64,000 nucleotides of DNA. It comes from Enterobacteria phage vB_EcoM_IME340. The notes beneath the pieces are model-generated. The model had not been told where the DNA came from, did not search any database, and was given only the letters and a program-made list of their open reading frames with translations. The position numbers were made by a program, and so were the translations under genes. This document shows, piece after piece, positions 51,303 through 61,881 of the stretch. Each line of letters starts with the position of its first letter. The stretch's first letter is position 1. Location of the stretch: sequence record MH051916; one strand, written 5' to 3'.

Positions 51303-51764
51303 ATGATTATTAATGAAAACTCTTGGCACTATAAATTATTCAAATTGTTTAACGATGAATGGCAACGACCTAAGACACTATGCGCATATTTTTGGTCTAT
51401 TGCCATACCTACATTTTTCGTTTCTATTTTTGGGTGTGCTATACTCGTAGGGTTAACAATTATTTGTGCAGAAAGCCTACAACGTTGGCTTATTTTCGGT
51501 AGTTTATGGACTCTTCTTCCATCGGCATTTATACTTGCGCTTTTGGTTGTTTTACTTATTATCGGTTCATTTGTTATTCCTGCACATTTGCGTGAAAAAT
51601 ATAAAGATTATAAATGGAAAAAGGATTATGCTTTACACGTAGAAAATATTGATAGGGCGTATAAAGGTTTACCTCCTATTCAACCCAAGAAATCGATTAT
51701 CGTTGAATTTTTAAAAGCTCGTAAAGCTAAAGTATGTCCTGTTATTGAATATAAGGCTGAATGA
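51303..51764 (+). CDS. Membrane protein
   Basis: 153 aa with two long hydrophobic helices. Confidence 0.6.
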   Translation: MIINENSWHYKLFKLFNDEWQRPKTLCAYFWSIAIPTFFVSIFGCAILVGLTIICAESLQRWLIFGSLWTLLPSAFILALLVVLLIIGSFVIPAHLREKYKDYKWKKDYALHVENIDRAYKGLPPIQPKKSIIVEFLKARKAKVCPVIEYKAE

Positions 51765-52774
51765 TGAAAACAGTAATGAAAAGCTATTTTGGTAGTCATC
51801 TTTATGGAATTTCTACTCCAGAATCTGATGTAGATTTTAAAGAAATCTTTGTTCCTCCTGCTCGCGATATTCTTATTGGAAACGTCAAAGAGCACATGAG
51901 TAAAAACACTAACAACACATCATCTAAAAACACTAAAGATGATATTGACCATGAACTATACAGTCTTAAGTATTTCTTTAAATTAGCAGCAGATGGTGAA
52001 ACTGTAGCATTGGATATGCTTCACACTCCACCTGAACTAGTGGTTAAATCTGATTTGCCTGATGTGTGGAAGTTTATTCAAGACAACCGTTCTCGTTTTT
52101 ATACGACTAACATGAAATCCTATTTAGGATATGTCCGCAAGCAAGCTTCTAAATATGGTGTTAAGGGTTCTCGTTTGGCCGCATTGCGTGATGTATTGAA
52201 AGTAGTTAATCAAATCCCCGATCAGTGGGTTGATTACCGAGAAGATGGAACACAAGGACAACGTCGTACTAAAATTGCAGATATTAAACACCGTCTTCCA
52301 GAAAACGAATTCTGCGAATGGGTATTTCATAATCATGAGAAAACAGGCCCGCAAACGTTCTATACTGTGTTGGGTCGTAAATATCAGACAACGCTTTCTC
52401 TTATTGAGCTTAAGCAGTCTTTGAATAAACTTGATGCTGAATATGGTGAACGCGCTCGTAAGGCTGAAGCTAATGAGGGCATTGACTGGAAAGCTCTGAG
52501 TCATGCTTGCCGTGGTGGACTCCAACTATTGGAAATTTACAAAACTGGTGACTTAGTCTATCCACTTCAAGACGCTCCATTTATTCTCGACGTGAAGTTG
52601 GGTAAACATCCATTTAAAACTGTTCAAGAGTTTTTGGAAGATGTGGTCGATCAAGTAGAAGCAGCATCCATTGAAGCTTCTAAGAACGGTATGCAGCAAA
52701 AAGTAGACATGGGTTTCTGGGATGACTTCCTTGAGAGGGTTTATCTTGAAAACCACCGAAGTTATTATAAATGA
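51761..52774 (+). CDS. Pol-beta superfamily nucleotidyltransferase
   Basis: 337 aa; N-terminal signature GSHLYGISTPESDVD (G-S-x9-SD-x-D), later acidic residues, helical C-terminal domain. Confidence 0.7.
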   Translation: MMKTVMKSYFGSHLYGISTPESDVDFKEIFVPPARDILIGNVKEHMSKNTNNTSSKNTKDDIDHELYSLKYFFKLAADGETVALDMLHTPPELVVKSDLPDVWKFIQDNRSRFYTTNMKSYLGYVRKQASKYGVKGSRLAALRDVLKVVNQIPDQWVDYREDGTQGQRRTKIADIKHRLPENEFCEWVFHNHEKTGPQTFYTVLGRKYQTTLSLIELKQSLNKLDAEYGERARKAEANEGIDWKALSHACRGGLQLLEIYKTGDLVYPLQDAPFILDVKLGKHPFKTVQEFLEDVVDQVEAASIEASKNGMQQKVDMGFWDDFLERVYLENHRSYYK

Positions 52775-52776
52775 TA

Positions 52777-52802
52777 GGGAGCCTTCGGGCTCCCTTTTTT
52801 AT
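52777..52802 (+). terminator. Rho-independent terminator
   Basis: gggagcc-ttcg-ggctccc hairpin followed by tttttt. Confidence 0.75.
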
Positions 52803-52825
52803 TTCAAAATTTTTTTCACAAAACG

Positions 52826-52855
52826 GTTTACAAGCATAAAGCTTTATGGTACTAT
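52826..52855 (+). promoter_or_regulatory. T4 early promoter with UP element
   Basis: aaaatttttttcacaaaacgGTTTACa, 18 bp spacer, tggTACTATacaactatcaact, then ggagaataaaATG. Confidence 0.65.
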
Positions 52856-52889
52856 ACAACTATCAACTGATACGGATTTGGAGAATAAA

Positions 52890-53858
52890 ATGAAAACTGT
52901 AACTATCAATAAGGGTATCTACTTCGGTAAAGAAATCTCTGGAACTTTTGAGCTCTTAGGCGAATGGTTCCCAGATAATGCTCCGGTAGATGCACAAGGA
53001 GATGGTAAAGTTTTTGTTGAAATTGACGGTAAACGTCGCGGTGTTTGGGTTTACAAATCAGATATTTCATATGATGGTGTAAAAGTTGAAGAAGTTAAAG
53101 AATCGTATGAAGATATGAAAACCCGCATTAATAAAAGATTTAATGTTATGGGAATGATGACGAATGGTATTATTAATGGAAATATTCGTTCATTAATTAT
53201 CTCTGGCGCAGCAGGTATTGGTAAAACGTATTCTTTAGATAAAGCTTTAAATAAAGCAAATGATAATGGATACATTGAATATAAAAGCATTAATGGTAAA
53301 ATCTCTGGTATTGGTCTTTATGAGCAGCTTTGGAATAATCGTGAAGAGAATTCTGTCCTTTTGATTGATGATGTGGATGTTTTTTCTGATATGGACATTC
53401 TTAATCTTCTGAAAGCTGCTCTGGACACTGGAGAGACCCGTAAAGTCTGCTGGAGCACTGCATCTTCTTACTTAGAAGAAAAAGGCATTGACCGTGAGTT
53501 TGAATTTAAAGGAACGATTGTTTTTATCACAAACGTTGACATTGACCGCGAATTAGACCGTGGTACTAAACTTGCCCCACACTTACAAGCATTAGTGTCA
53601 CGCTCAGTTTATTTGGATTTGGGTGTTCACACTAATGAAGAAATTATGGTCAGGGTTGAAGATGTTATTCTTTCAACTGACATGATGCAAAAGCGCGGTC
53701 TTTCTGATGAAGAAACTTATAAAGCATTATCATGGATGAAAGTTAATGTTAATCGTTTACGCAATGTTTCACTGCGTACTGCTCTTTATCTTGCTGACTT
53801 TATTATGACCGACAAAAACGGTTGGGAAGAAATTGCTGAGGTTACTCTTCTGAAATAA
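52890..53858 (+). CDS. AAA+ ATPase
   Basis: 322 aa from ATG at MKTVTINK; Walker A SGAAGIGKT, Walker B VLLIDDVD. Confidence 0.72.
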   Translation: MKTVTINKGIYFGKEISGTFELLGEWFPDNAPVDAQGDGKVFVEIDGKRRGVWVYKSDISYDGVKVEEVKESYEDMKTRINKRFNVMGMMTNGIINGNIRSLIISGAAGIGKTYSLDKALNKANDNGYIEYKSINGKISGIGLYEQLWNNREENSVLLIDDVDVFSDMDILNLLKAALDTGETRKVCWSTASSYLEEKGIDREFEFKGTIVFITNVDIDRELDRGTKLAPHLQALVSRSVYLDLGVHTNEEIMVRVEDVILSTDMMQKRGLSDEETYKALSWMKVNVNRLRNVSLRTALYLADFIMTDKNGWEEIAEVTLLK

Positions 53859-53959
53859 TTCATAAGAGGACTTCTATGACAAAAAGGCAGTTCAGAAATA
53901 GATTATATGGACTGCCATTAAAAAGATGACTAGAATTAAACTGGTAAATGGAGGTAGTG

Positions 53960-54262
53960 ATGTTATACTCAAAGGCTCGTGAAATTTACGAAACTAAGAT
54001 TAAAGAAGCTGTATTTCAATTTGCAACGACAATGCGATGGACAAATGACTGGGAGTATTCAAAAAATCATAAGAAGCCCATGGTGACAAGAAAGGCTCAC
54101 ATGTTAGTGTTAATAGACCGTGAGCAGATTAAAGCCCGAGAAGCCCTCCAGAATCATAAAAAGGCTGCCTTTGAATGGTTTATGGATAACACTGCTCCCG
54201 AGACTAAGAAAGCAGTGAGCGCATGGTTCAGTGGAAAAAATTGTGAAAGAAGTTTCTTTTAG
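53960..54262 (+). CDS. Hypothetical protein
   Basis: 100 aa from ATG at MLYSKAREIY with GGAGG SD. Confidence 0.5.
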   Translation: MLYSKAREIYETKIKEAVFQFATTMRWTNDWEYSKNHKKPMVTRKAHMLVLIDREQIKAREALQNHKKAAFEWFMDNTAPETKKAVSAWFSGKNCERSFF

Positions 54263-54264
54263 TG

Positions 54265-54294
54265 GTTTACAAGACTGTTCCTCTGTGGTACTAT
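54265..54294 (+). promoter_or_regulatory. T4 early promoter (gtttac / tactat)
   Basis: gtttac, 18 bp spacer, tgtggTACTATacaactatcaactac. Confidence 0.65.
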
Positions 54295-54322
54295 ACAACT
54301 ATCAACTACGGAGGAACACAAA

Positions 54323-54850
54323 ATGAACGCTAAAGATATTTTCAACTTGGTAAATTACAACGATGGTAAATTTAAATCTGAAGCACAAAGTAAGTTCTTT
54401 AATGACATCTCAATCGGAGGTGAAATCACTGTTGATGGAGGACAAATTTACAAATCCCGTTGGAATTGGATCGTTATTATCGATGAGATTGGTATTGTAG
54501 AAATTTACAAGAATACGAATAAAAATCGTACATTACACTGGTCTCGTGATACTAACGAACAGTACAAAAAGGATAAAGCATCTAAATTATCTCGTGTAAC
54601 TCAAGAAGATATTGAGTTCATCAAGAAAGATATTTTAATGTATGATAATTTAATTGCTGAAGAGCAAGCTGTTATTGATAAATTTGACGAGATTAAAGCT
54701 TCTCGTGAAATTCCTGATTTTATGAAAGAATCAGTGAATGAACGATACACTCTCATTTCAGAGCGTATTGAAACTTACAAAAAGCAAAGAGCTGAACGCC
54801 AAAATACTCTTCGGAAGTTTGAAGAACGGTTAAAGACGGTACTCGCATAA
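54323..54850 (+). CDS. Hypothetical protein with C-terminal coiled coil
   Basis: 175 aa; SD ggaggaacacaaaATG. Confidence 0.6.
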   Translation: MNAKDIFNLVNYNDGKFKSEAQSKFFNDISIGGEITVDGGQIYKSRWNWIVIIDEIGIVEIYKNTNKNRTLHWSRDTNEQYKKDKASKLSRVTQEDIEFIKKDILMYDNLIAEEQAVIDKFDEIKASREIPDFMKESVNERYTLISERIETYKKQRAERQNTLRKFEERLKTVLA

Positions 54851-54905
54851 CCGCTTTATACCAAGGATGGTATAATGGTTCTAAGCCCTTTTAATTGAGA
54901 TTATT

Positions 54906-55313
54906 ATGAAACAGTTGATAATTAAAAGATTGAATTTATTGATATGTTGTTTATGTGTAGTAGTTGCATACGGTTATTACGCAATTAATGATTATATGCA
55001 CTATAAAGATTATGATGTTACTGTAGTTAATACTATTACAGGAACACAAGGAAAAGGGTCTAGTTTATCGTTTATTGCCGTATATGAACTCAAAGACGGT
55101 TATAGATTTAGTGAATATATTTCCCCAGAGATGTATTCTTCAATAGAAAAAGGTGATAATATTACTGTAAGTTTACGTCCTTTCGACGTAAAACAGACAC
55201 TGTTTGATAATATTATTTGGTTCTTTGGGATGGTATTAGTTCAATCTGTGTGTGGTGCTTACGTAGTCTGTTCCATCTTATTCTGTATATTTAGTAAAAT
55301 TGAAATTGAGTGA
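54906..55313 (+). CDS. Membrane protein
   Basis: 135 aa; N-terminal and C-terminal transmembrane helices flanking a soluble domain. Confidence 0.6.
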   Translation: MKQLIIKRLNLLICCLCVVVAYGYYAINDYMHYKDYDVTVVNTITGTQGKGSSLSFIAVYELKDGYRFSEYISPEMYSSIEKGDNITVSLRPFDVKQTLFDNIIWFFGMVLVQSVCGAYVVCSILFCIFSKIEIE

Positions 55314-55320
55314 GGAAAAT

Positions 55321-56211
55321 ATGTCAGTCGTAATTAATAATGTCAATGCAGTAATTAAATCTTTAGTTAATAAAAAAATGATGAATGAATGGACTGTATT
55401 TCGTCGTGGAGAGCCAGATAAATTTTTTCATAGATTTAACCCAACTTTGGATTTGAATGTTATTGACAGAGATGTTCATGCCGAAATTTTAGATAAGTTT
55501 AAAGTTGATATTGGCTTTGGATTAGAAAAACATTTACAGCGAACAAATGGGTCTGGAATGAGTTTATCTAATCGCATTATGAAAGCCCTTAATAAAATTG
55601 GAGCGTTGTCTCGTATTAATGCGAGTGAAATCCTTCGTAATTATAATAAAGGATATGACCTTTATGGTCGACTAATGCCGAAATTATCATTCGATCAAAT
55701 GATAGCGGATTTGTGGGAAAATCAACGACGATTATTAGCATTAGGCGCTCGATTAGCTAAAGGTCTAGATAAACAAATGATTTTTAAGACCAATAATACA
55801 GAAGACCTTAAATGCTTTAAATTTAGTATTCGTGGAGATGATTATTACATCAGAGCTCGCTCTACAGATTATGTTAATATGGGGCATCATCTCTGTTTGG
55901 CTTTTGAAGTTTTAAAAGAAGCTGGAACATTAGAATATTCATCTGGTGCAAAATGCCCTATTGGTTCAAGTTGTATTTTAATTTATCGCCCGGATGAATC
56001 CAGTTCAACTAAATTGCCTACGAAACCTGTACCAGTTCGTAGTAACGAAAAACATTCTGAACAAATTGATTATTTTAATAAACAGATTGAAGAGCTGAAT
56101 ATTTCTATTCAACAATATGACGATGAAATTTTCAGACTATCTGGATTGAGTAGTAAAGCTAAATCTGAGCGTGAAAAGTTAATTAAAATTGTTGATTTAC
56201 TTAAATCTTAA
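55321..56211 (+). CDS. Paralog family protein A (variable N-domain, conserved C-terminal coiled coil)
   Basis: 296 aa from ATG at MSVVINN (track began at upstream TTG); C-terminal KPV linker plus coiled coil shared with the next three ORFs. Confidence 0.62.
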   Translation: MSVVINNVNAVIKSLVNKKMMNEWTVFRRGEPDKFFHRFNPTLDLNVIDRDVHAEILDKFKVDIGFGLEKHLQRTNGSGMSLSNRIMKALNKIGALSRINASEILRNYNKGYDLYGRLMPKLSFDQMIADLWENQRRLLALGARLAKGLDKQMIFKTNNTEDLKCFKFSIRGDDYYIRARSTDYVNMGHHLCLAFEVLKEAGTLEYSSGAKCPIGSSCILIYRPDESSSTKLPTKPVPVRSNEKHSEQIDYFNKQIEELNISIQQYDDEIFRLSGLSSKAKSEREKLIKIVDLLKS

Positions 56212-56219
56212 GGAACACT

Positions 56220-57248
56220 ATGAAAACTCGTTCTCAAATTGAAGATATGGTTCGTAACGCTAGCGATACTCGTGATGTTATGACATTTTTGTGTGAAAAT
56301 AATTTAGATTTTGATAAAGTTAATCGTGCTATTCATCACTTTAAATATCTGAATAGCAGTGAATGGGTGCGTAATTTTAGTAAAGCAGGGTATATTACGC
56401 AAATGACTGCTCGTGAGCAGCTCACCGATTTCTGTAAAACTATTGATTATAAAAATCCTCTATTTGTTCAAGGCGTTGGTCAAAGTAAGGTCAATTTATC
56501 ATCTGGATTTTTCAATCCAAATCATTATCGTATTGAATGGAGATTTATTGCTCTGTTCCGTAGACAATTAAAGCAAATTTTATCAACTGCGAGTCGATTA
56601 AAAGGTTCTGATATTAACTTAAAGAATCTGAAATTTGATGGTTATACTCTTCAGATGGAAGTAAGACCATTAAAAGAAAATAATAGAACCGCACGAATTA
56701 GCTTTAAACCTAATACAAAAAATTCTCTTTCAATTTGTGAATGCCTTAAATCACAGTTGACAGAAGCATTTAAGTATATGGATGTTGTTGCTGGTGTTCA
56801 GTCTAAGATTTCAAAGCATTTCGAACGATTTAAATTAGACACAACAACATATGAACTTGATATGATCGTTTCATTTAAATACGATTTTTTGAGAAAGGAT
56901 GAAGTCACGCAAGAGAAAAAGCAGGAAGTGCAAGATAACTTAAATTTAAATTTATCCAATTACTCATCAAACGATCCTAAATTTTGGATGTATAGTTCAG
57001 GTAATAAGGATGCATGGAAATTCAATAAAGTGAATTTTCTTCCTGTTGAAAATCCGAGTCTTAAACCTGTTGAAAAATGGCATGCTGATGCGATTGAGAA
57101 GTCTATCAAGGCAGTAGATGATGAACTCGTTAAAGCAACTAATGAAGTGTTAGAAGCTGAAAAGATGTTAGAAAAAGCTCAAGAAAAAGTCAAAAATCTC
57201 ACGAAGCAACGTTCTAAACTGAACAATGCACTAAATGCACTGAACTAG
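56220..57248 (+). CDS. Paralog family protein B
   Basis: 342 aa; shares the W..F...L...A..L core motif and C-terminal coiled coil with A, C and D. Confidence 0.62.
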   Translation: MKTRSQIEDMVRNASDTRDVMTFLCENNLDFDKVNRAIHHFKYLNSSEWVRNFSKAGYITQMTAREQLTDFCKTIDYKNPLFVQGVGQSKVNLSSGFFNPNHYRIEWRFIALFRRQLKQILSTASRLKGSDINLKNLKFDGYTLQMEVRPLKENNRTARISFKPNTKNSLSICECLKSQLTEAFKYMDVVAGVQSKISKHFERFKLDTTTYELDMIVSFKYDFLRKDEVTQEKKQEVQDNLNLNLSNYSSNDPKFWMYSSGNKDAWKFNKVNFLPVENPSLKPVEKWHADAIEKSIKAVDDELVKATNEVLEAEKMLEKAQEKVKNLTKQRSKLNNALNALN

Positions 57249-57278
57249 TTTACTTTACCACAAGGATGTGGTATAATG
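57249..57278 (+). promoter_or_regulatory. T4 early promoter (gtttac / tataat)
   Basis: gtttac, 18 bp spacer, tgtggTATAAT, then gaggagattaatATG. Confidence 0.6.
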
Positions 57279-57305
57279 TTCTTACTTTCTACTGAGGAGA
57301 TTAAT

Positions 57306-58307
57306 ATGACTCGTAACGAATATATCAAATCATTCAACAGCGTTATTGATGATAAAGCTATACCGATGTTTGGCCAAAATAGCGTTATTTCCATTATCAA
57401 TCAATGGCTCAATAGTGTTGACGCAAGTATTGTTTCTTCTGTTAAATTTATTCATGAAATTCGTAAAATTTCTAGCCGTGTAGATAAAGATGTTATCAAG
57501 AAAGCCTTTAAAGAGTCTCGTCTTCTTTCATATTTGGTTAATCGGGATATTCTTGGTAATTTTGGGAAAGAAATTAAACGAACCAAAGATGTAGTAGGAT
57601 ATAATTGGTTCGGTGATGTTAATTCTTATCATCTTAATGTCAAAGAAGACCCCGAGAATATTTTTACTCGTCGTTGGATTAGTAATTTCAGACTTTTCAA
57701 AGGACAGATTCTAAAATCAGCTTCTAAATTATGTTATGGCGATTATCGTCAAATTCATCCTTTGGCTTCTGATATGATTATCATAAAAGAATATGAACTT
57801 GATAAAAATAAAGTATCTATTTTTGTGAATTATGGATTTTTTACACCAGAAACTAATCAAAAGAACATTAATAAATTTTTCTCAATTGCTAGCACTATAA
57901 CTCGTCAATTAGAGACTGCACTACTTTGTATGGAAACGGTAGAAAATATTCATACTTATCCTTTTAAGAATATGTGCGGTTGGGAAGGATATAAAATTGT
58001 AGTTAGTCTTCGTGAAGTGAAATGTGCTTATTCACCGACTGATAAAGAAATTTACCAACAAAAATGTGATGAAATTGTGAATACTCCTAAAGAAGAAACT
58101 ACACTTGAGGAACTAATGGATAATCTTGATGATTCGCCTGAACCCGTAGAAATTCGTCCAGAAGTTATTGCACTAGAAAAAGCTTATAAAGAAGCTCTAG
58201 AAATTTCTAATAAAGCGCAGAAAGAATATGAGCAGGCTAAAAGGATTTGGGAAGAATCTGTTAATCGCCTTGATCGTTTAGAACAAGCTTTACAGTTAAT
58301 TAAGTAA
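57306..58307 (+). CDS. Paralog family protein C
   Basis: 333 aa from ATG at MTRNEY; C-terminal coiled coil. Confidence 0.62.
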   Translation: MTRNEYIKSFNSVIDDKAIPMFGQNSVISIINQWLNSVDASIVSSVKFIHEIRKISSRVDKDVIKKAFKESRLLSYLVNRDILGNFGKEIKRTKDVVGYNWFGDVNSYHLNVKEDPENIFTRRWISNFRLFKGQILKSASKLCYGDYRQIHPLASDMIIIKEYELDKNKVSIFVNYGFFTPETNQKNINKFFSIASTITRQLETALLCMETVENIHTYPFKNMCGWEGYKIVVSLREVKCAYSPTDKEIYQQKCDEIVNTPKEETTLEELMDNLDDSPEPVEIRPEVIALEKAYKEALEISNKAQKEYEQAKRIWEESVNRLDRLEQALQLIK

Positions 58308-58359
58308 TTTAAAGCCAAGGATGGCTCGGAGTATAAATCATTAACCAAGTGAGAAGAAC

Positions 58360-59289
58360 ATGAAAACTCGTAAACATTATATTGATTATTTTGATAGTCT
58401 TATTACTAAACACCGTAATTATCAAATCGGGCACAGAGCAGTAATCAATAATATTCTTCGTGATTTCCTTCAATATGTTGGCCAAGAAAATCATATCTGT
58501 AAAGATACACAGAACGCTTATTCTCATTCGTTGGGCAATTTGCTTGAATGGTTTAAACGTTCTCGTATGTTATCTTCTACTGTAGCTCGCGATAACATTA
58601 AAAACTTTATGAAGCCGAGCTTTATTAAATCTGAGACATCTATAACTGATTTGGTTGAATTTACTATTGTTAACGATGTTAAAAAGACTCATTTGGCTGA
58701 TTGGTTATCTACCATTCCTGAAACTAAATTTGCTGATAAATTTGCTTGTCAATTCAATGACCAAGTGAATATGCTTTTTAAGCATGCTCGCAAACTGTTT
58801 ACTGCGGGCGATGACCGTACAAATACAGTTCATGTTAAGGACTGGGTTATTGCTGATGAAGTAACACACAAGCCAGGTGGTTCATCAGTATTAATTAATA
58901 TCCAGGTTCCTTATTATTACTCACGTAATCTCGGCACCATGACAGCTAGAGAAATTAATAAGCACAACAAAACTATTCGTTCGTTATCTTATAAACTTCG
59001 CATGATGTTAAAAATCATGGACGTAGTAGAAATGTATGACGAAACCGAAAATAATGGTTCAATGTTATACAGTTCACGTATTCTAATTAAACTGAAGAAC
59101 CCTAATACATATAAGCCAGTTGTAAAAGAACCTAAAGTAGAAAAGGTTGATAACCTGAGCGAAGAACGCGAATATCTCAATGCTCGTTTGATTGAAGTTG
59201 AAGCCCAGATTGCCGAACACACCAAATTGTTAAAAGCTCTTAATGCAAAAGCAAATGGTTTACGCAATGCTATTGAGGTATTGAAATGA
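58360..59289 (+). CDS. Paralog family protein D
   Basis: 309 aa; C-terminal coiled coil. Confidence 0.62.
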   Translation: MKTRKHYIDYFDSLITKHRNYQIGHRAVINNILRDFLQYVGQENHICKDTQNAYSHSLGNLLEWFKRSRMLSSTVARDNIKNFMKPSFIKSETSITDLVEFTIVNDVKKTHLADWLSTIPETKFADKFACQFNDQVNMLFKHARKLFTAGDDRTNTVHVKDWVIADEVTHKPGGSSVLINIQVPYYYSRNLGTMTAREINKHNKTIRSLSYKLRMMLKIMDVVEMYDETENNGSMLYSSRILIKLKNPNTYKPVVKEPKVEKVDNLSEEREYLNARLIEVEAQIAEHTKLLKALNAKANGLRNAIEVLK

Positions 59290-59603
59290 AAAAGCGTCTA
59301 TTAGAAGATATTGCAGCTTCAAGTAATTCCAGTCTAATTAAAATTATTATGGCTGGTGAAGAAGACGATCTGGAAATGCGTGGAAAGATTCATGGTTGCG
59401 ATGATTTAGACTTTAAACCTCCAGCCTGGGATGCCATTATGGTTATGGTTGAACGCCGCGAAAGGGCTTCTAAAAACGTTCCTAATTGCCCTGAATGTGG
59501 AACTGAACAGGTTCAATTAATTCATTGGCAGACTAGTAATCTTCGTTATAAATGCCGTCATTGCAAACATCGATTTGAGAGAGAAGAAAATGACCAAGCG
59601 TAA
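59286..59603 (+). CDS. Zinc-ribbon protein
   Basis: 105 aa with CPECG...CRHCKH C4 motif. Confidence 0.6.
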
Positions 59604-59832
59604 AGAATATATGGAGATTGCTGAAAAAGCAGTCCGTGAATTAGCAATAGCTTATTATAATGAACACGGTAAATTTCCTGATAGATACAGCGTGCTTAAA
59701 TCTGCTTTAACTCGTTCATATAAAAATATGCTATCAGAAGTAAGTGATATTATATACAAATATAAAGAACAAACTGGCCAAAGTCTTGATTATGACGAGA
59801 CTTTTAAACAAGTACTAGGAATTAAGGAATAA
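59590..59832 (+). CDS. Hypothetical protein
   Basis: 80 aa from ATG at MTKRKEY. Confidence 0.45.
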
Positions 59833-59833
59833 T

Positions 59834-60097
59834 ATGTTTAAAGTATATGGTTATGATAGCAACATCCATAAATGTGTGTATTGCGATAATGCAAAACGTC
59901 TTTTGACTGTGAAGAAACAGCCGTTTGAATTTATCAACATTATGCCGGAAAAAGGTGTTTTTGATGATGAGAAAATTGCTGAGCTTCTGACTAAACTAGG
60001 TCGTGATACTCAAATCGGATTGACGATGCCTCAGGTATTTGCTCCTGATGGAAGTCATATTGGTGGATTTGACCAATTGCGGGAATACTTTAAATGA
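59834..60097 (+). CDS. nrdC: Glutaredoxin/thioredoxin NrdC
   Basis: 87 aa; MFKVYGYDSNIHKCVYCDNAKRLL with CVYC active site, matching recalled T4 NrdC. Confidence 0.93.
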   Translation: MFKVYGYDSNIHKCVYCDNAKRLLTVKKQPFEFINIMPEKGVFDDEKIAELLTKLGRDTQIGLTMPQVFAPDGSHIGGFDQLREYFK

Positions 60098-60309
60098 TGC
60101 TCGAAGGAACTGATTATATCCATGACTACCGCGGAAGCGCGGTATATGTTGGTGATGAGGTTGCAGTTTATTATGGGTATGGAACTTTGATGACAGCAAA
60201 GGTTATTCAAATTAAAAATGGCCGCGCTAAACTTGAAGTTTATTATTCTAATGGTGAAAAGTCTATTTCTAAATGGAAATATGGCGATTGCATGGTTAAA
60301 CTGGGGTAA
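60094..60309 (+). CDS. Hypothetical protein
   Basis: 71 aa ORF coupled to nrdC. Confidence 0.5.
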   Translation: MMLEGTDYIHDYRGSAVYVGDEVAVYYGYGTLMTAKVIQIKNGRAKLEVYYSNGEKSISKWKYGDCMVKLG

Positions 60310-60311
60310 AT

Positions 60312-60620
60312 ATGATTTACGATGTTGATGCAGTTTTGAGCGAAATAATCGAAGACCATGATGCATTTTCAGAAAATTATGATTTCGATTTTTCGGATTA
60401 TCTTAAACCTGTCGAAATAGAAGACTGGGTGCAAGACGGTAAATGTCAATATCGTCAGTGTGTTTATTTTAGTCCAAAACATAATGTACATGTTTCCGTA
60501 AATGAATGCCGTTCAGGTTCTTATCATTCTGACTGGTATTATGCAGTTCCTACTGTTGAACTAGTCGAACCTCGAGAACGTGTAGTAACTCAGACAATAC
60601 GAGAATGGATTACGCTATAA
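60312..60620 (+). CDS. Hypothetical protein
   Basis: 102 aa ORF. Confidence 0.5.
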   Translation: MIYDVDAVLSEIIEDHDAFSENYDFDFSDYLKPVEIEDWVQDGKCQYRQCVYFSPKHNVHVSVNECRSGSYHSDWYYAVPTVELVEPRERVVTQTIREWITL

Positions 60621-60743
60621 AACCCTGGTGGGCGGCTAGATGGGAAACTGTAGAGCCAGAGCCGGAAGAATCGGTTTACACTGATGAAGAAACAGTATAT
60701 AATGAACCTACAATAAATGACATAATTGATATGGAGATGGGAC

Positions 60744-61190
60744 ATGATTACAGTAGATAAGTGGTTTAGAATTAATCGTGCTGATAAAGAGCTGTGTAAT
60801 TACTGGCCAGAACTTAGTGCAGGTACTGTCTTTAAAGTTCGTGAACTTGTAAAAGAATGTGAAGATGATATAGAACCTGATACTGGAATTATTGAAATTG
60901 AACTTTCTGATGGAAAGATTATTAACATCTACGATAAGCCAATTACGTATTGGTGCTTATGGAATACTGAATCAGTAGAAAATGGCGAAATTGAAGAAGT
61001 TGTAGAACGAGTTGATCAAGCTATTCATAAACCTAAAGCCGCTTTTCAAGGTGAACGTATTTCATATGCATTAGCTAAATTAGCTGCGCAAGAAAATAAC
61101 GATGGTTATGAAGGAAATTTGATGCAAGCTGCGGCAGAATATATTGAATGGCTTGAAACTCAAATTTCTTTTTCTGACCGAGCGTTTTAA
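60744..61190 (+). CDS. Hypothetical acidic protein (T4 pin region)
   Basis: 148 aa from ATG at MITVDKWF (track began at upstream TTG); lies between nrdC and 49 where T4 carries pin, but identity not verified. Confidence 0.5.
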   Translation: MITVDKWFRINRADKELCNYWPELSAGTVFKVRELVKECEDDIEPDTGIIEIELSDGKIINIYDKPITYWCLWNTESVENGEIEEVVERVDQAIHKPKAAFQGERISYALAKLAAQENNDGYEGNLMQAAAEYIEWLETQISFSDRAF

Positions 61191-61366
61191 TGAAAACTGA
61201 ATTGGTTTATACTGAAAAGTTAAATGGTGGTAAGGTTTGGAAACTTTTTATTAAAGGAAGTCCTACCGACTCTAATATGACCACTTGTGTAGGAACTTAT
61301 TCTCGTCCTACTAAAAAGATGATTCGGCAATATAAGCGATTGCATCGAATGTTTTACAATACTTGA
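61190..61366 (+). CDS. Small basic protein
   Basis: 58 aa ORF (MKTELVYTEKLNGGKVWKLFIKGSPTD...) overlapping the previous stop. Confidence 0.4.
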   Translation: MKTELVYTEKLNGGKVWKLFIKGSPTDSNMTTCVGTYSRPTKKMIRQYKRLHRMFYNT

Positions 61367-61377
61367 AAATAATAAAT

Positions 61378-61407
61378 ACCCTTATCTATTTAAGGTAAGG
61401 GTTTATT
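61378..61407 (+). terminator. Hairpin upstream of gene 49
   Basis: accctta ... taagggt inverted repeat followed by ttatt. Confidence 0.4.
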
Positions 61408-61881
61408 ATGTTATTGACTGGCAAATTATACAAAGAAGAAAAACAGAAATTTTATGATGCACAAAACGGTAAATGCTTAATTTGCCAACGAGAATTAAAT
61501 CCTGATGTTCAAGCTAATCACCTTGACCATGACCATGAATTAAATGGACCGAAAGCTGGAAAGGTACGTGGATTGCTTTGTAATCTATGCAATGCTGCGG
61601 AAGGTCAAATGAAGCATAAATTTAATCGTTCTGGCTTAAAGGGACAAGGTGTTGATTATCTTGAATGGTTAGAAAATTTACTTACTTATTTAAAATCCGA
61701 TTACACCCAAAATAATATTCACCCTAACTTTGTTGGAGATAAATCAAAGGAATTTTCTCGTTTAGGAAAAGAGGAAATGATGGCTGAGATGCTTCAAAGA
61801 GGATTTGAATATAATGAATCTGACACTAAAACACAATTAATAGCTTCATTTAAGAAGCAGCTTAGAAAGAGTTTAAAATGA
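61408..61881 (+). CDS. 49: Endonuclease VII (Holliday junction resolvase) gp49
   Basis: 157 aa; MLLTGKLYKEEKQKFYDAQNGKCLICQREL...HLDHDHELNGPKAGKVRGLLCNLCN zinc/His-Cys motif, matching recalled T4 endo VII. Confidence 0.93.
   Translation: MLLTGKLYKEEKQKFYDAQNGKCLICQRELNPDVQANHLDHDHELNGPKAGKVRGLLCNLCNAAEGQMKHKFNRSGLKGQGVDYLEWLENLLTYLKSDYTQNNIHPNFVGDKSKEFSRLGKEEMMAEMLQRGFEYNESDTKTQLIASFKKQLRKSLK

Follow-up and report, generated by a model that had tools for sequence, protein, structure and literature searches.

Bacteriophage T4 is the best-studied of all phages, and about half of its genes are without an assigned function. When its nrdC.5 gene alone is supplied in trans, a deletion mutant regains the ability to plate on cells with the ECOR17 defence system Dsr1 (Srikant, Guegler & Laub 2022; PMC9391042). 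The target countered by NrdC.5, Dsr1, is a SIR2 NADase, acting on nicotinamide adenine dinucleotide (NAD) (PMC9391042), and its sensor domain, common to Avs7, is triggered by the phage major capsid protein (bioRxiv 10.64898/2026.01.04.697583). A working parallel is DSAD1 of phage SPbeta, which is described as suppressing the SIR2 NADase DSR2, itself triggered by a virion protein. The analogy is one of function alone, and DSR2 senses the tail tube whereas Dsr1 senses the capsid protein. Here we report that nrdC.5 belongs to a tandem array of four paralogous genes, nrdC.6, nrdC.5, nrdC.4 and nrdC.3, examined in Enterobacteria phage vB_EcoM_IME340 (sequence record MH051916). The window analysed is a stretch of 64,000 nucleotides, in which the array and the gene that follows it occupy positions 55,321 to 59,603.

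Clusters of dispensable genes, each acting against a different host system and each gained, lost or swapped among relatives, have been described in the T-even dmd-tifA-adfA island and in the internal proteins IPI, IPII and IPIII. The nrdC array resembles them in these respects. Unlike them, it consists of four adjacent true paralogues of about 300 amino acids with a coiled-coil tail and, unlike the internal proteins, nrdC.3 to nrdC.6 carry no capsid-targeting signal and are probably cytoplasmic early proteins that are not injected. The NrdC.5 of T4 was treated as a stand-alone uncharacterised gene by Srikant et al. (2022); in our analysis the IME340 gene is its orthologue within a four-member family, and the other three IME340 genes are its distant paralogues.

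IME340 is a Tequatrovirus, and the 4.9-kb array region is 91.9% identical to T4 DNA and is matched by 690 phage records. Synteny with T4, together with the roughly 92% DNA identity, identifies the four open reading frames in order, all on the + strand: nrdC.6 (55321-56211, 296 amino acids, the most diverged of the four), nrdC.5 (56220-57248, 342), nrdC.4 (57306-58307, 333) and nrdC.3 (58360-59289, 309). The original prediction of four consecutive genes was thus accurate in length, strand and order. The nrdC.5 gene lies where its T4 counterpart does, between nrdC.6 and nrdC.4, and its product is 94.4% identical in amino acid sequence over 340 residues. It also matches Pfam DUF7235 (PF23882) from end to end (415.9 bits, E = 1.5e-124, residues 1-342 against 1-307 of 307; gathering score 30 bits), a profile to which nrdC.6, nrdC.4 and nrdC.3 gave no match in the same Pfam scan. 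Beyond DUF7235 the scan of the four proteins returned just sub-threshold noise (PHL, Phage_int_SAM_1, AAA_23, DUF4164), the library scanned being one without the PF26897 model. Full-length matches to phrog_1435 were found for nrdC.4 (E = 9e-168) and nrdC.3 (E = 3e-117), and all nrdC.4 homologues carry PF26897 ("Phage_T4_Y04OP"). The product of nrdC.6 matches phrog_2257 (E = 2e-152), and PF26899 is found on each of its homologues (105/105). Pfam and PHROGs therefore divide the four proteins into three families: nrdC.4 with nrdC.3 (PF26897/phrog_1435), nrdC.5 (DUF7235) and nrdC.6 (PF26899/phrog_2257). These entries, listed as separate families of unknown function, already place nrdC.4 and nrdC.3 together and delimit the nrdC.6 orthologues. 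Pfam, PHROGs and the literature found by text search contain no link between nrdC.5 and nrdC.3, nrdC.4 or nrdC.6.

Identity among the paralogues is below 25% by BLASTP, which joins just nrdC.4 with nrdC.3 (E = 8e-8, 25% identity over 275 residues); the nrdC.6/nrdC.5 and nrdC.5/nrdC.4 comparisons are not significant. Profiles made from non-redundant family alignments, combining database homologues with the arrays of eight other phages, reach further. Comparison by hhalign gave P = 2e-14 (98% probability) for nrdC.4/nrdC.3, 1e-5 in one run and 9e-7 in a second (91%, 251 collinear columns) for nrdC.5/nrdC.4, 7.5e-4 and 7e-3 in two runs for nrdC.6/nrdC.4, 2e-3 for nrdC.5/nrdC.3 and 1.4e-2 for nrdC.6/nrdC.5, and the alignments among the families are collinear. 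When the profiles were cut at the [KE]PV linker that precedes the C-terminal helix, and everything from the linker on was removed, the remaining N-domains still aligned with P = 6e-15 (nrdC.4/nrdC.3), 4e-6 (nrdC.5/nrdC.4), 3e-4 (nrdC.6/nrdC.4), 2e-3 (nrdC.5/nrdC.3) and 7.5e-3 (nrdC.6/nrdC.5); nrdC.6/nrdC.3 was not significant in this N-domain comparison. Reversed profiles gave P = 0.08-0.7, and the neighbouring genes nrdC.8, nrdC.7, nrdC.2 and nrdC.1, run as controls against all four families, gave P = 0.15-0.8. The similarity cannot be put down to the coiled coil, because the N-domain profiles are significant and the reversed and neighbour controls are not. With those same control values the four neighbours were rejected as truncated members of the family, including nrdC.8, despite the long helix in which it, too, ends (P = 0.15-0.5); nrdC.2 gave P = 0.6-0.8.

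An exhaustive HMMER search with the nrdC.4/nrdC.3 profile against 1.84 billion representative sequences found just 10 proteins and led to neither nrdC.5 nor nrdC.6 in a direct way; in this search the subfamily showed no sign of occurring outside a narrow, phage-linked set. One of the proteins from the scan, the metagenomic P0234, bridges two families, having an nrdC.4-type body and an nrdC.5-type tail (97.5%, 6e-12 against the nrdC.5 family profile; 95.9%, 6e-9 against that of nrdC.4). Searches of PDB sequences with all three family profiles yielded no solved relative, the sole matches being to designed helical repeats and to a ribosomal protein, with weak E-values.

A merged alignment of the four families and three singletons places three collinear motifs in register in seven lineages. 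The first, h-K-x-S/G-R-x-L-S-x3-A-x3-L-x2-F/Y-x-K, is encoded at 55576-55653 (nrdC.6), 56364-56441 (nrdC.5), 57495-57572 (nrdC.4) and 58540-58617 (nrdC.3). The second, W-x2-F ... IL-x2-A-x-K-L-x2-GD, lies at 55699-55779, 56538-56615, 57669-57755 and 58735-58821 in the same gene order, and proves to be the internal W-x(2,3)-F...L...A..L motif that had been noticed from the sequence. The third, qL--AL--MdVV, falls within a helix (55885-55926, 56745-56789, 57897-57941 and 58984-59028). All three are on the + strand and were located by hhalign and the merged alignment. The AlphaFold2 model of nrdC.4 (predicted local distance difference test score, pLDDT, 82.8) has helices at residues 3-84, an alpha/beta part at 88-235, a disordered linker at 263-283 and a single helix at 285-332; that of nrdC.6 (pLDDT 78.4) has a helical N-part, an alpha/beta part, a disordered linker at 228-242 and C-terminal helices at 243-272 and 277-295. 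The succession of elements is the same in both models: the N-terminal helices, five to six in number, are followed by a long helix bearing motif 2, a beta-hairpin, a long helix bearing motif 3, a second beta-hairpin, the disordered linker and the terminal helix. In a Foldseek comparison with viral models (BFVD), the two models match seven common full-length proteins with probability 0.99-1.0, from Pectobacterium PM2, Enterobacter IME523, Acinetobacter fHyAci03, Acj9, Acj61 (two, with consecutive accession numbers) and Yersinia fHe-Yen9-01, and the nrdC.4 model also matches JS10 NrdC.6 (E = 5e-5). On these models, nrdC.4 and nrdC.6 appear to share one predicted fold.

Based on these observations, the four proteins are homologous over their full length and not just in the coiled coil, with nrdC.6 joined mainly by structure. 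We regard the common descent of nrdC.5, nrdC.4 and nrdC.3 as almost certain, and that of nrdC.6 with the other three as quite likely. The profile search proposed as a check of the original prediction therefore bore it out as regards homology, and the similarity is not confined to a low-complexity coiled coil. Its description of the N-domains as variable modules did not survive: they are diverged homologues of one two-part fold, a helical bundle followed by an alpha/beta part, and they carry most of the detectable homology.

The C-terminal module is real in architecture and less uniform in sequence than had been proposed. The [KE]PV tripeptide is present in all four proteins (at residue 235 in nrdC.6, 282 in nrdC.5, 279 in nrdC.4 and 252 in nrdC.3), directly before the C-terminal helix. 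The last 46-59 residues of each form one continuous heptad repeat, encoded on the + strand at 56041-56208 (nrdC.6), 57069-57245 (nrdC.5), 58155-58304 (nrdC.4) and 59149-59286 (nrdC.3), in which 75-88% of the a and d positions are hydrophobic against 17-30% of the others, a contrast reached by only 0-9 of 2000 shuffles. Both the linker and the coiled coil thus stand as originally described. In the nrdC.4 and nrdC.6 models, likewise, a disordered linker leads into a long terminal helix, and the last nine residues of every tail read L-x-x-[AI]-[LIV]-x-[ALV]-L-K, with one common heptad register. Within each orthologous group no segment is better conserved than this helix, with mean pairwise identities of 71, 51, 71 and 82% as against 65, 47, 51 and 64% for the alpha/beta part. 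Between paralogues it is family-specific, with a common architecture and terminal motif and little common sequence (hhalign P = 0.003-0.13 for the helices alone). The claim of a conserved common module accordingly holds for architecture, register and the terminal nine residues, and fails for the sequence itself, which is particular to each paralogue. Conservation within groups combined with divergence between them fits self-association better than a common docking site; one shared docking partner is not indicated, because the C-terminal sequence is paralogue-specific. We infer that the helix may be a self-association element that each paralogue has kept for itself.

The number of family members differs among genera. 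There is a single copy in Karamvirus and in Klebsiella T4-like phages (Karamvirus myPSH1140, Klebsiella Roth67), three in Mosigvirus (nrdC.6-, nrdC.5- and nrdC.3-like), three in Dhakavirus and Gaprivervirus (nrdC.6-, nrdC.5- and nrdC.4-like) and four in Tequatrovirus. The single copy of Enterobacter phage myPSH1140, of about 336 amino acids (L010 4904-5914), lies in a 1.08-kb unannotated gap directly upstream of the nrdC.2 homologue and aligns with nrdC.6 (hhalign 51%, 1.5e-4). Within the IME340 array, DNA-level repeats are short, chance-level matches only; the duplications are ancient, because no DNA similarity is left between the paralogues. In Gaprivervirus and Dhakavirus (L002 4844-5059, L003 4856-5071) a conserved open reading frame for a predicted membrane protein of 71 amino acids stands between the nrdC.6-like and nrdC.5-like genes, and is absent from Tequatrovirus.

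Compared with T4, the four genes have ratios of nonsynonymous to synonymous substitution rates (dN/dS) of 0.14-0.27, and their neighbours 0.00-0.12, except nrdC.7 at 0.30. These values indicate relaxed constraint and not positive selection at the level of the whole gene; gene-wide positive selection was rejected with dN/dS below 0.3. The expectation of a diversifying multigene family is borne out to the extent that profile searches reveal a diverged family, and not in the sense of positive selection. A different history is seen in nrdC.3. The IME340 protein is 62% identical to that of T4, with a synonymous divergence (dS) of 1.13 against 0.08-0.38 for the neighbours, between flanks that are 90-100% identical, and shares 78% of its residues with the Mosigvirus copy. 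The divergence from T4 is concentrated in the alpha/beta part, and there are two old alleles of nrdC.3 within Tequatrovirus, IME340 having the Mosigvirus-like one. The pattern is one of allele replacement, and the likeness to the Mosigvirus gene points to exchange between genera.

Natural rearrangements add to this variation. Salmonella phage Manna (L004 5215-6252) carries an in-frame chimera of nrdC.6 residues 1-277 and nrdC.4 residues 256-333, with nrdC.5 deleted. Its junction is a 21-nucleotide imperfect repeat (QQYDDEI/QQKCDEI) whose two copies lie at 56110-56130 and 58056-58076 in IME340, making the chimera a natural domain-swap mutant. On the 167-kb contig P0120, nrdC.5 is fused to nrdC.3 at a KVN/QVN microhomology, and phage ACG-C40 (L005 5805-6216) retains only a 71-amino-acid nrdC.5 stub and the last 72 codons of nrdC.3, nrdC.4 being wholly lost. 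The diversity of the array is the product of old duplication, allele replacement and gene loss. Two further observations concern nrdC.6. In Shigella phage Sf25 (P0122, 378 amino acids) it repeats an internal segment of about 82 residues (IRAHSTDY...QIEEL) exactly, which is either a genuine tandem duplication or an artefact of assembly. In the T4 GenBank record AF158101 (L001 4314-5141) it has 275 amino acids and a divergent tail without the coiled coil, and the T4 gene table of the HIDEN-SEQ preprint gives 891 nucleotides (296 amino acids); the short form is likely a frameshift or an error of the old record or strain.

The gaps between genes measure 7, 8, 57 and 52 nucleotides. The 57-nucleotide gap before nrdC.4 contains, by consensus scan and direct reading, a promoter-like site on the + strand (57248-57277), GTTTAC-N17-(TG)gTATAAT, followed by a GAGGAG ribosome-binding site; we take its GTTTAC-N17-TGgTATAAT sequence to fit the early-promoter consensus of T4. 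A weaker promoter-like TTTAAA-N18-TATAAA occurs in the gap before nrdC.3 (58308-58359). No Rfam RNA family was found in 51500-61500, and the minus-strand open reading frames of the array region are all of 92 amino acids or fewer, each lying inside + strand genes. Further upstream, between nrdC.11 and nrdC.10, a GC-rich hairpin of 8 perfect base pairs with a run of T after it (52776-52795) resembles an intrinsic terminator, and a promoter-like TTTACA-N17-TACTAT (52827-52855) lies 3' of it.

Directly after the array comes nrdC.2 (59286-59603, + strand, 105 amino acids), which overlaps nrdC.3 by 4 nucleotides (ATGA) and is followed by nrdC.1 and then nrdC. The Zn-ribbon protein placed here from sequence, with nrdC downstream, is thereby identified, and the order is that of T4. 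The protein has a C-terminal CxxC...CxxC Zn ribbon, matches phrog_1474 and, weakly, Pfam Zn-ribbon entries, and stands outside the four-gene family. In every locus with a family member, the last copy has nrdC.2 as its immediate downstream neighbour: the adjacency is kept in Tequatrovirus, Gaprivervirus, Dhakavirus, Mosigvirus, Karamvirus, Klebsiella Roth67 and the metagenomic locus L009. The two genes overlap in five loci, by 4 nucleotides in four of them and by 1 in Mosigvirus, and in Roth67 nrdC.2 starts 21 nucleotides downstream. Such constant adjacency, mostly with a stop codon that overlaps the next start codon, hints at translational coupling or at a partnership. The gene is far commoner than the array, being present in 1124 phage records that include Klebsiella, Aeromonas and Vibrio phages. 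In Aeromonas phage 65.2 (L012 8770-12144) its neighbourhood contains a ribose-phosphate pyrophosphokinase and a nicotinamide phosphoribosyltransferase, a pair for NAD salvage of the sort reported to act against NAD-depleting immunity.

The surroundings of the array are rich in genes with reported anti-defence functions. The HIDEN-SEQ preprint (10.1101/2025.11.20.689424) describes T4 nrdC.1 as an inhibitor of Septu and Bas37_0203 as one of Druantia III, and Gp49.2 inhibits OLD (PMC13096335). In IME340, nrdC.1 (59590-59832, + strand) is 97.5% identical to the T4 protein, and the gp49.2 orthologue (60312-60620, + strand) is identical to that of T4 at 94 of 99 residues. The product of nrdC.8 (54323-54850, + strand), which is not a member of the family, is identical at 174 of 175 residues to Bas37_0203 of phage KarlGJung; this identity and the Bas37 gene table make Bas37_0203 the nrdC.8 orthologue, a name that the preprint does not use. 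The array lies inside an anti-defence island, because four genes there (nrdC.5, nrdC.8, nrdC.1 and gp49.2) have such reported functions. The position of T4 gene 49.3 is held in IME340 by an unrelated open reading frame of 71 amino acids (60094-60309), as in ACG-C40 and Manna.

We propose that nrdC.3 to nrdC.6 form a tandem, Straboviridae-specific family in which each paralogue is a stoichiometric, non-enzymatic blocker of a different host immune protein, an explanation we hold to be the most probable one while according it only moderate confidence. The four genes go back to ancient tandem duplication of a single Straboviridae-specific protein built of four parts: a helical bundle at the N terminus, then an alpha/beta domain, a linker that is flexible and rich in proline and acidic residues, and the C-terminal heptad-repeat helix. 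The early-type promoter-like site and the T4 gene order suggest that the array is transcribed early. Each paralogue may then bind a different immune protein, in the way that NrdC.5 functionally counters Dsr1, with the helical and alpha/beta body setting target specificity and the coiled coil possibly yielding an oligomeric inhibitor with more avidity for multimeric immune proteins. The three remaining paralogues are good candidate immune blockers because their paralogue nrdC.5 disarms Dsr1. Their behaviour is that of accessory genes, being dispensable (nrdC.3 to nrdC.6 are classed "Non-essential" on K-12 in the T4 and Bas37 transposon maps; 10.1101/2025.11.20.689424), variable in copy number, naturally deleted and subject to allele replacement. 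Binding proteins are favoured over enzymes, because there is neither a conserved polar constellation nor an enzyme match: the columns conserved in all four families are almost all hydrophobic, the merged alignment contains no polar residue constellation common to them, and no enzyme family was matched by Pfam, by PDB sequence searches or by fold. Several points weigh against this proposal. Only one of the four paralogues, nrdC.5, has an experimental phenotype; nrdC.3, nrdC.4 and nrdC.6 were not picked up when HIDEN-SEQ was applied to several clinical isolates (10.1101/2025.11.20.689424); direct binding of NrdC.5 to Dsr1 is an assumption; the C-terminal helices could pack intramolecularly, the nrdC.6 model having a helical hairpin there; and nrdC.6 is tied to the others mostly through predicted structure, its profile-profile P values (3e-4 to 7e-3) being weak alone.

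The silence of those screens is an argument for nrdC.5 being the sole anti-defence protein of the four, with the others serving unrelated roles in host takeover or phage-phage competition on a shared scaffold, and at less than 25% identity functions may indeed have drifted. The screens covered few defence systems, however, and the paralogues behave as accessory or host-range genes and sit among four validated anti-defence genes, so that we judge this explanation unlikely while giving it more weight than any of the other alternatives. A more radical doubt, that the four genes are non-homologous and that unrelated N-domains have each acquired a generic coiled-coil tail by convergence or chance, could appeal to the insignificant BLASTP comparisons and to the three separate families held by Pfam and PHROGs. 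It is largely refuted, and to our minds very improbable, given N-domain profile alignments that are significant and collinear where reversed and neighbour controls are not, the bridging protein P0234, reciprocal Foldseek matches and three motifs in register in seven lineages. It is hardly credible either that the family consists of enzymes, acting for example on NAD+ or its breakdown products and so countering NAD-depleting immunity metabolically; indeed we place this lowest of all. The known target, Dsr1, is an NADase and phages do use NAD-reconstitution pathways against NAD-depleting systems, but the family has no conserved polar residues in common, Pfam, PDB sequences and fold yield no enzyme match, and the paralogues are too different for a common active site.

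A further alternative takes its cue from the virion. The alpha/beta core might descend from, or mimic, a gpU-like tail-terminator or tail-completion protein, the array then supplying early decoys for receptors of conserved virion parts. The match to the gpU-like fold is a weak one that extends over part of the protein (about 100 of 333 residues) and has no sequence signal; unlike gpU-like proteins, the nrdC family has further modules, helical and coiled-coil, and is encoded by early genes that are not structural. We consider such a descent very unlikely, and judge just as unlikely its elaboration as an "immune-receptor plug", in which tail-terminator-derived oligomeric decoys, duplicated in coliphages as a panel, would each fill a different sensor (Dsr1/Avs7-type or other Avs) before the late structural proteins appear. 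A capsid-protein mimic, that is an HK97-fold decoy for the Dsr1 sensor, was also considered and rejected, structural comparison having given no HK97-fold match.

The array is not a new kind of system. What is new with respect to the databases and literature searched is that three separate families of unknown function (PF26897, PF26899 and DUF7235), and with them an anti-defence protein, are joined as one superfamily with a common multi-part architecture. Through the link to NrdC.5, three orphan genes of T4-like phages become concrete candidate immune inhibitors, as do their Straboviridae relatives in phages that infect about a dozen host genera. With one scaffold, four specificities, chimeras and alleles, the family offers a natural experiment that could map how a phage inhibitor recognizes its target. 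The case for the block from nrdC.11 to 49.1 as a dense anti-defence island is strengthened, which is useful for predicting the host range of therapeutic T4-like phages.

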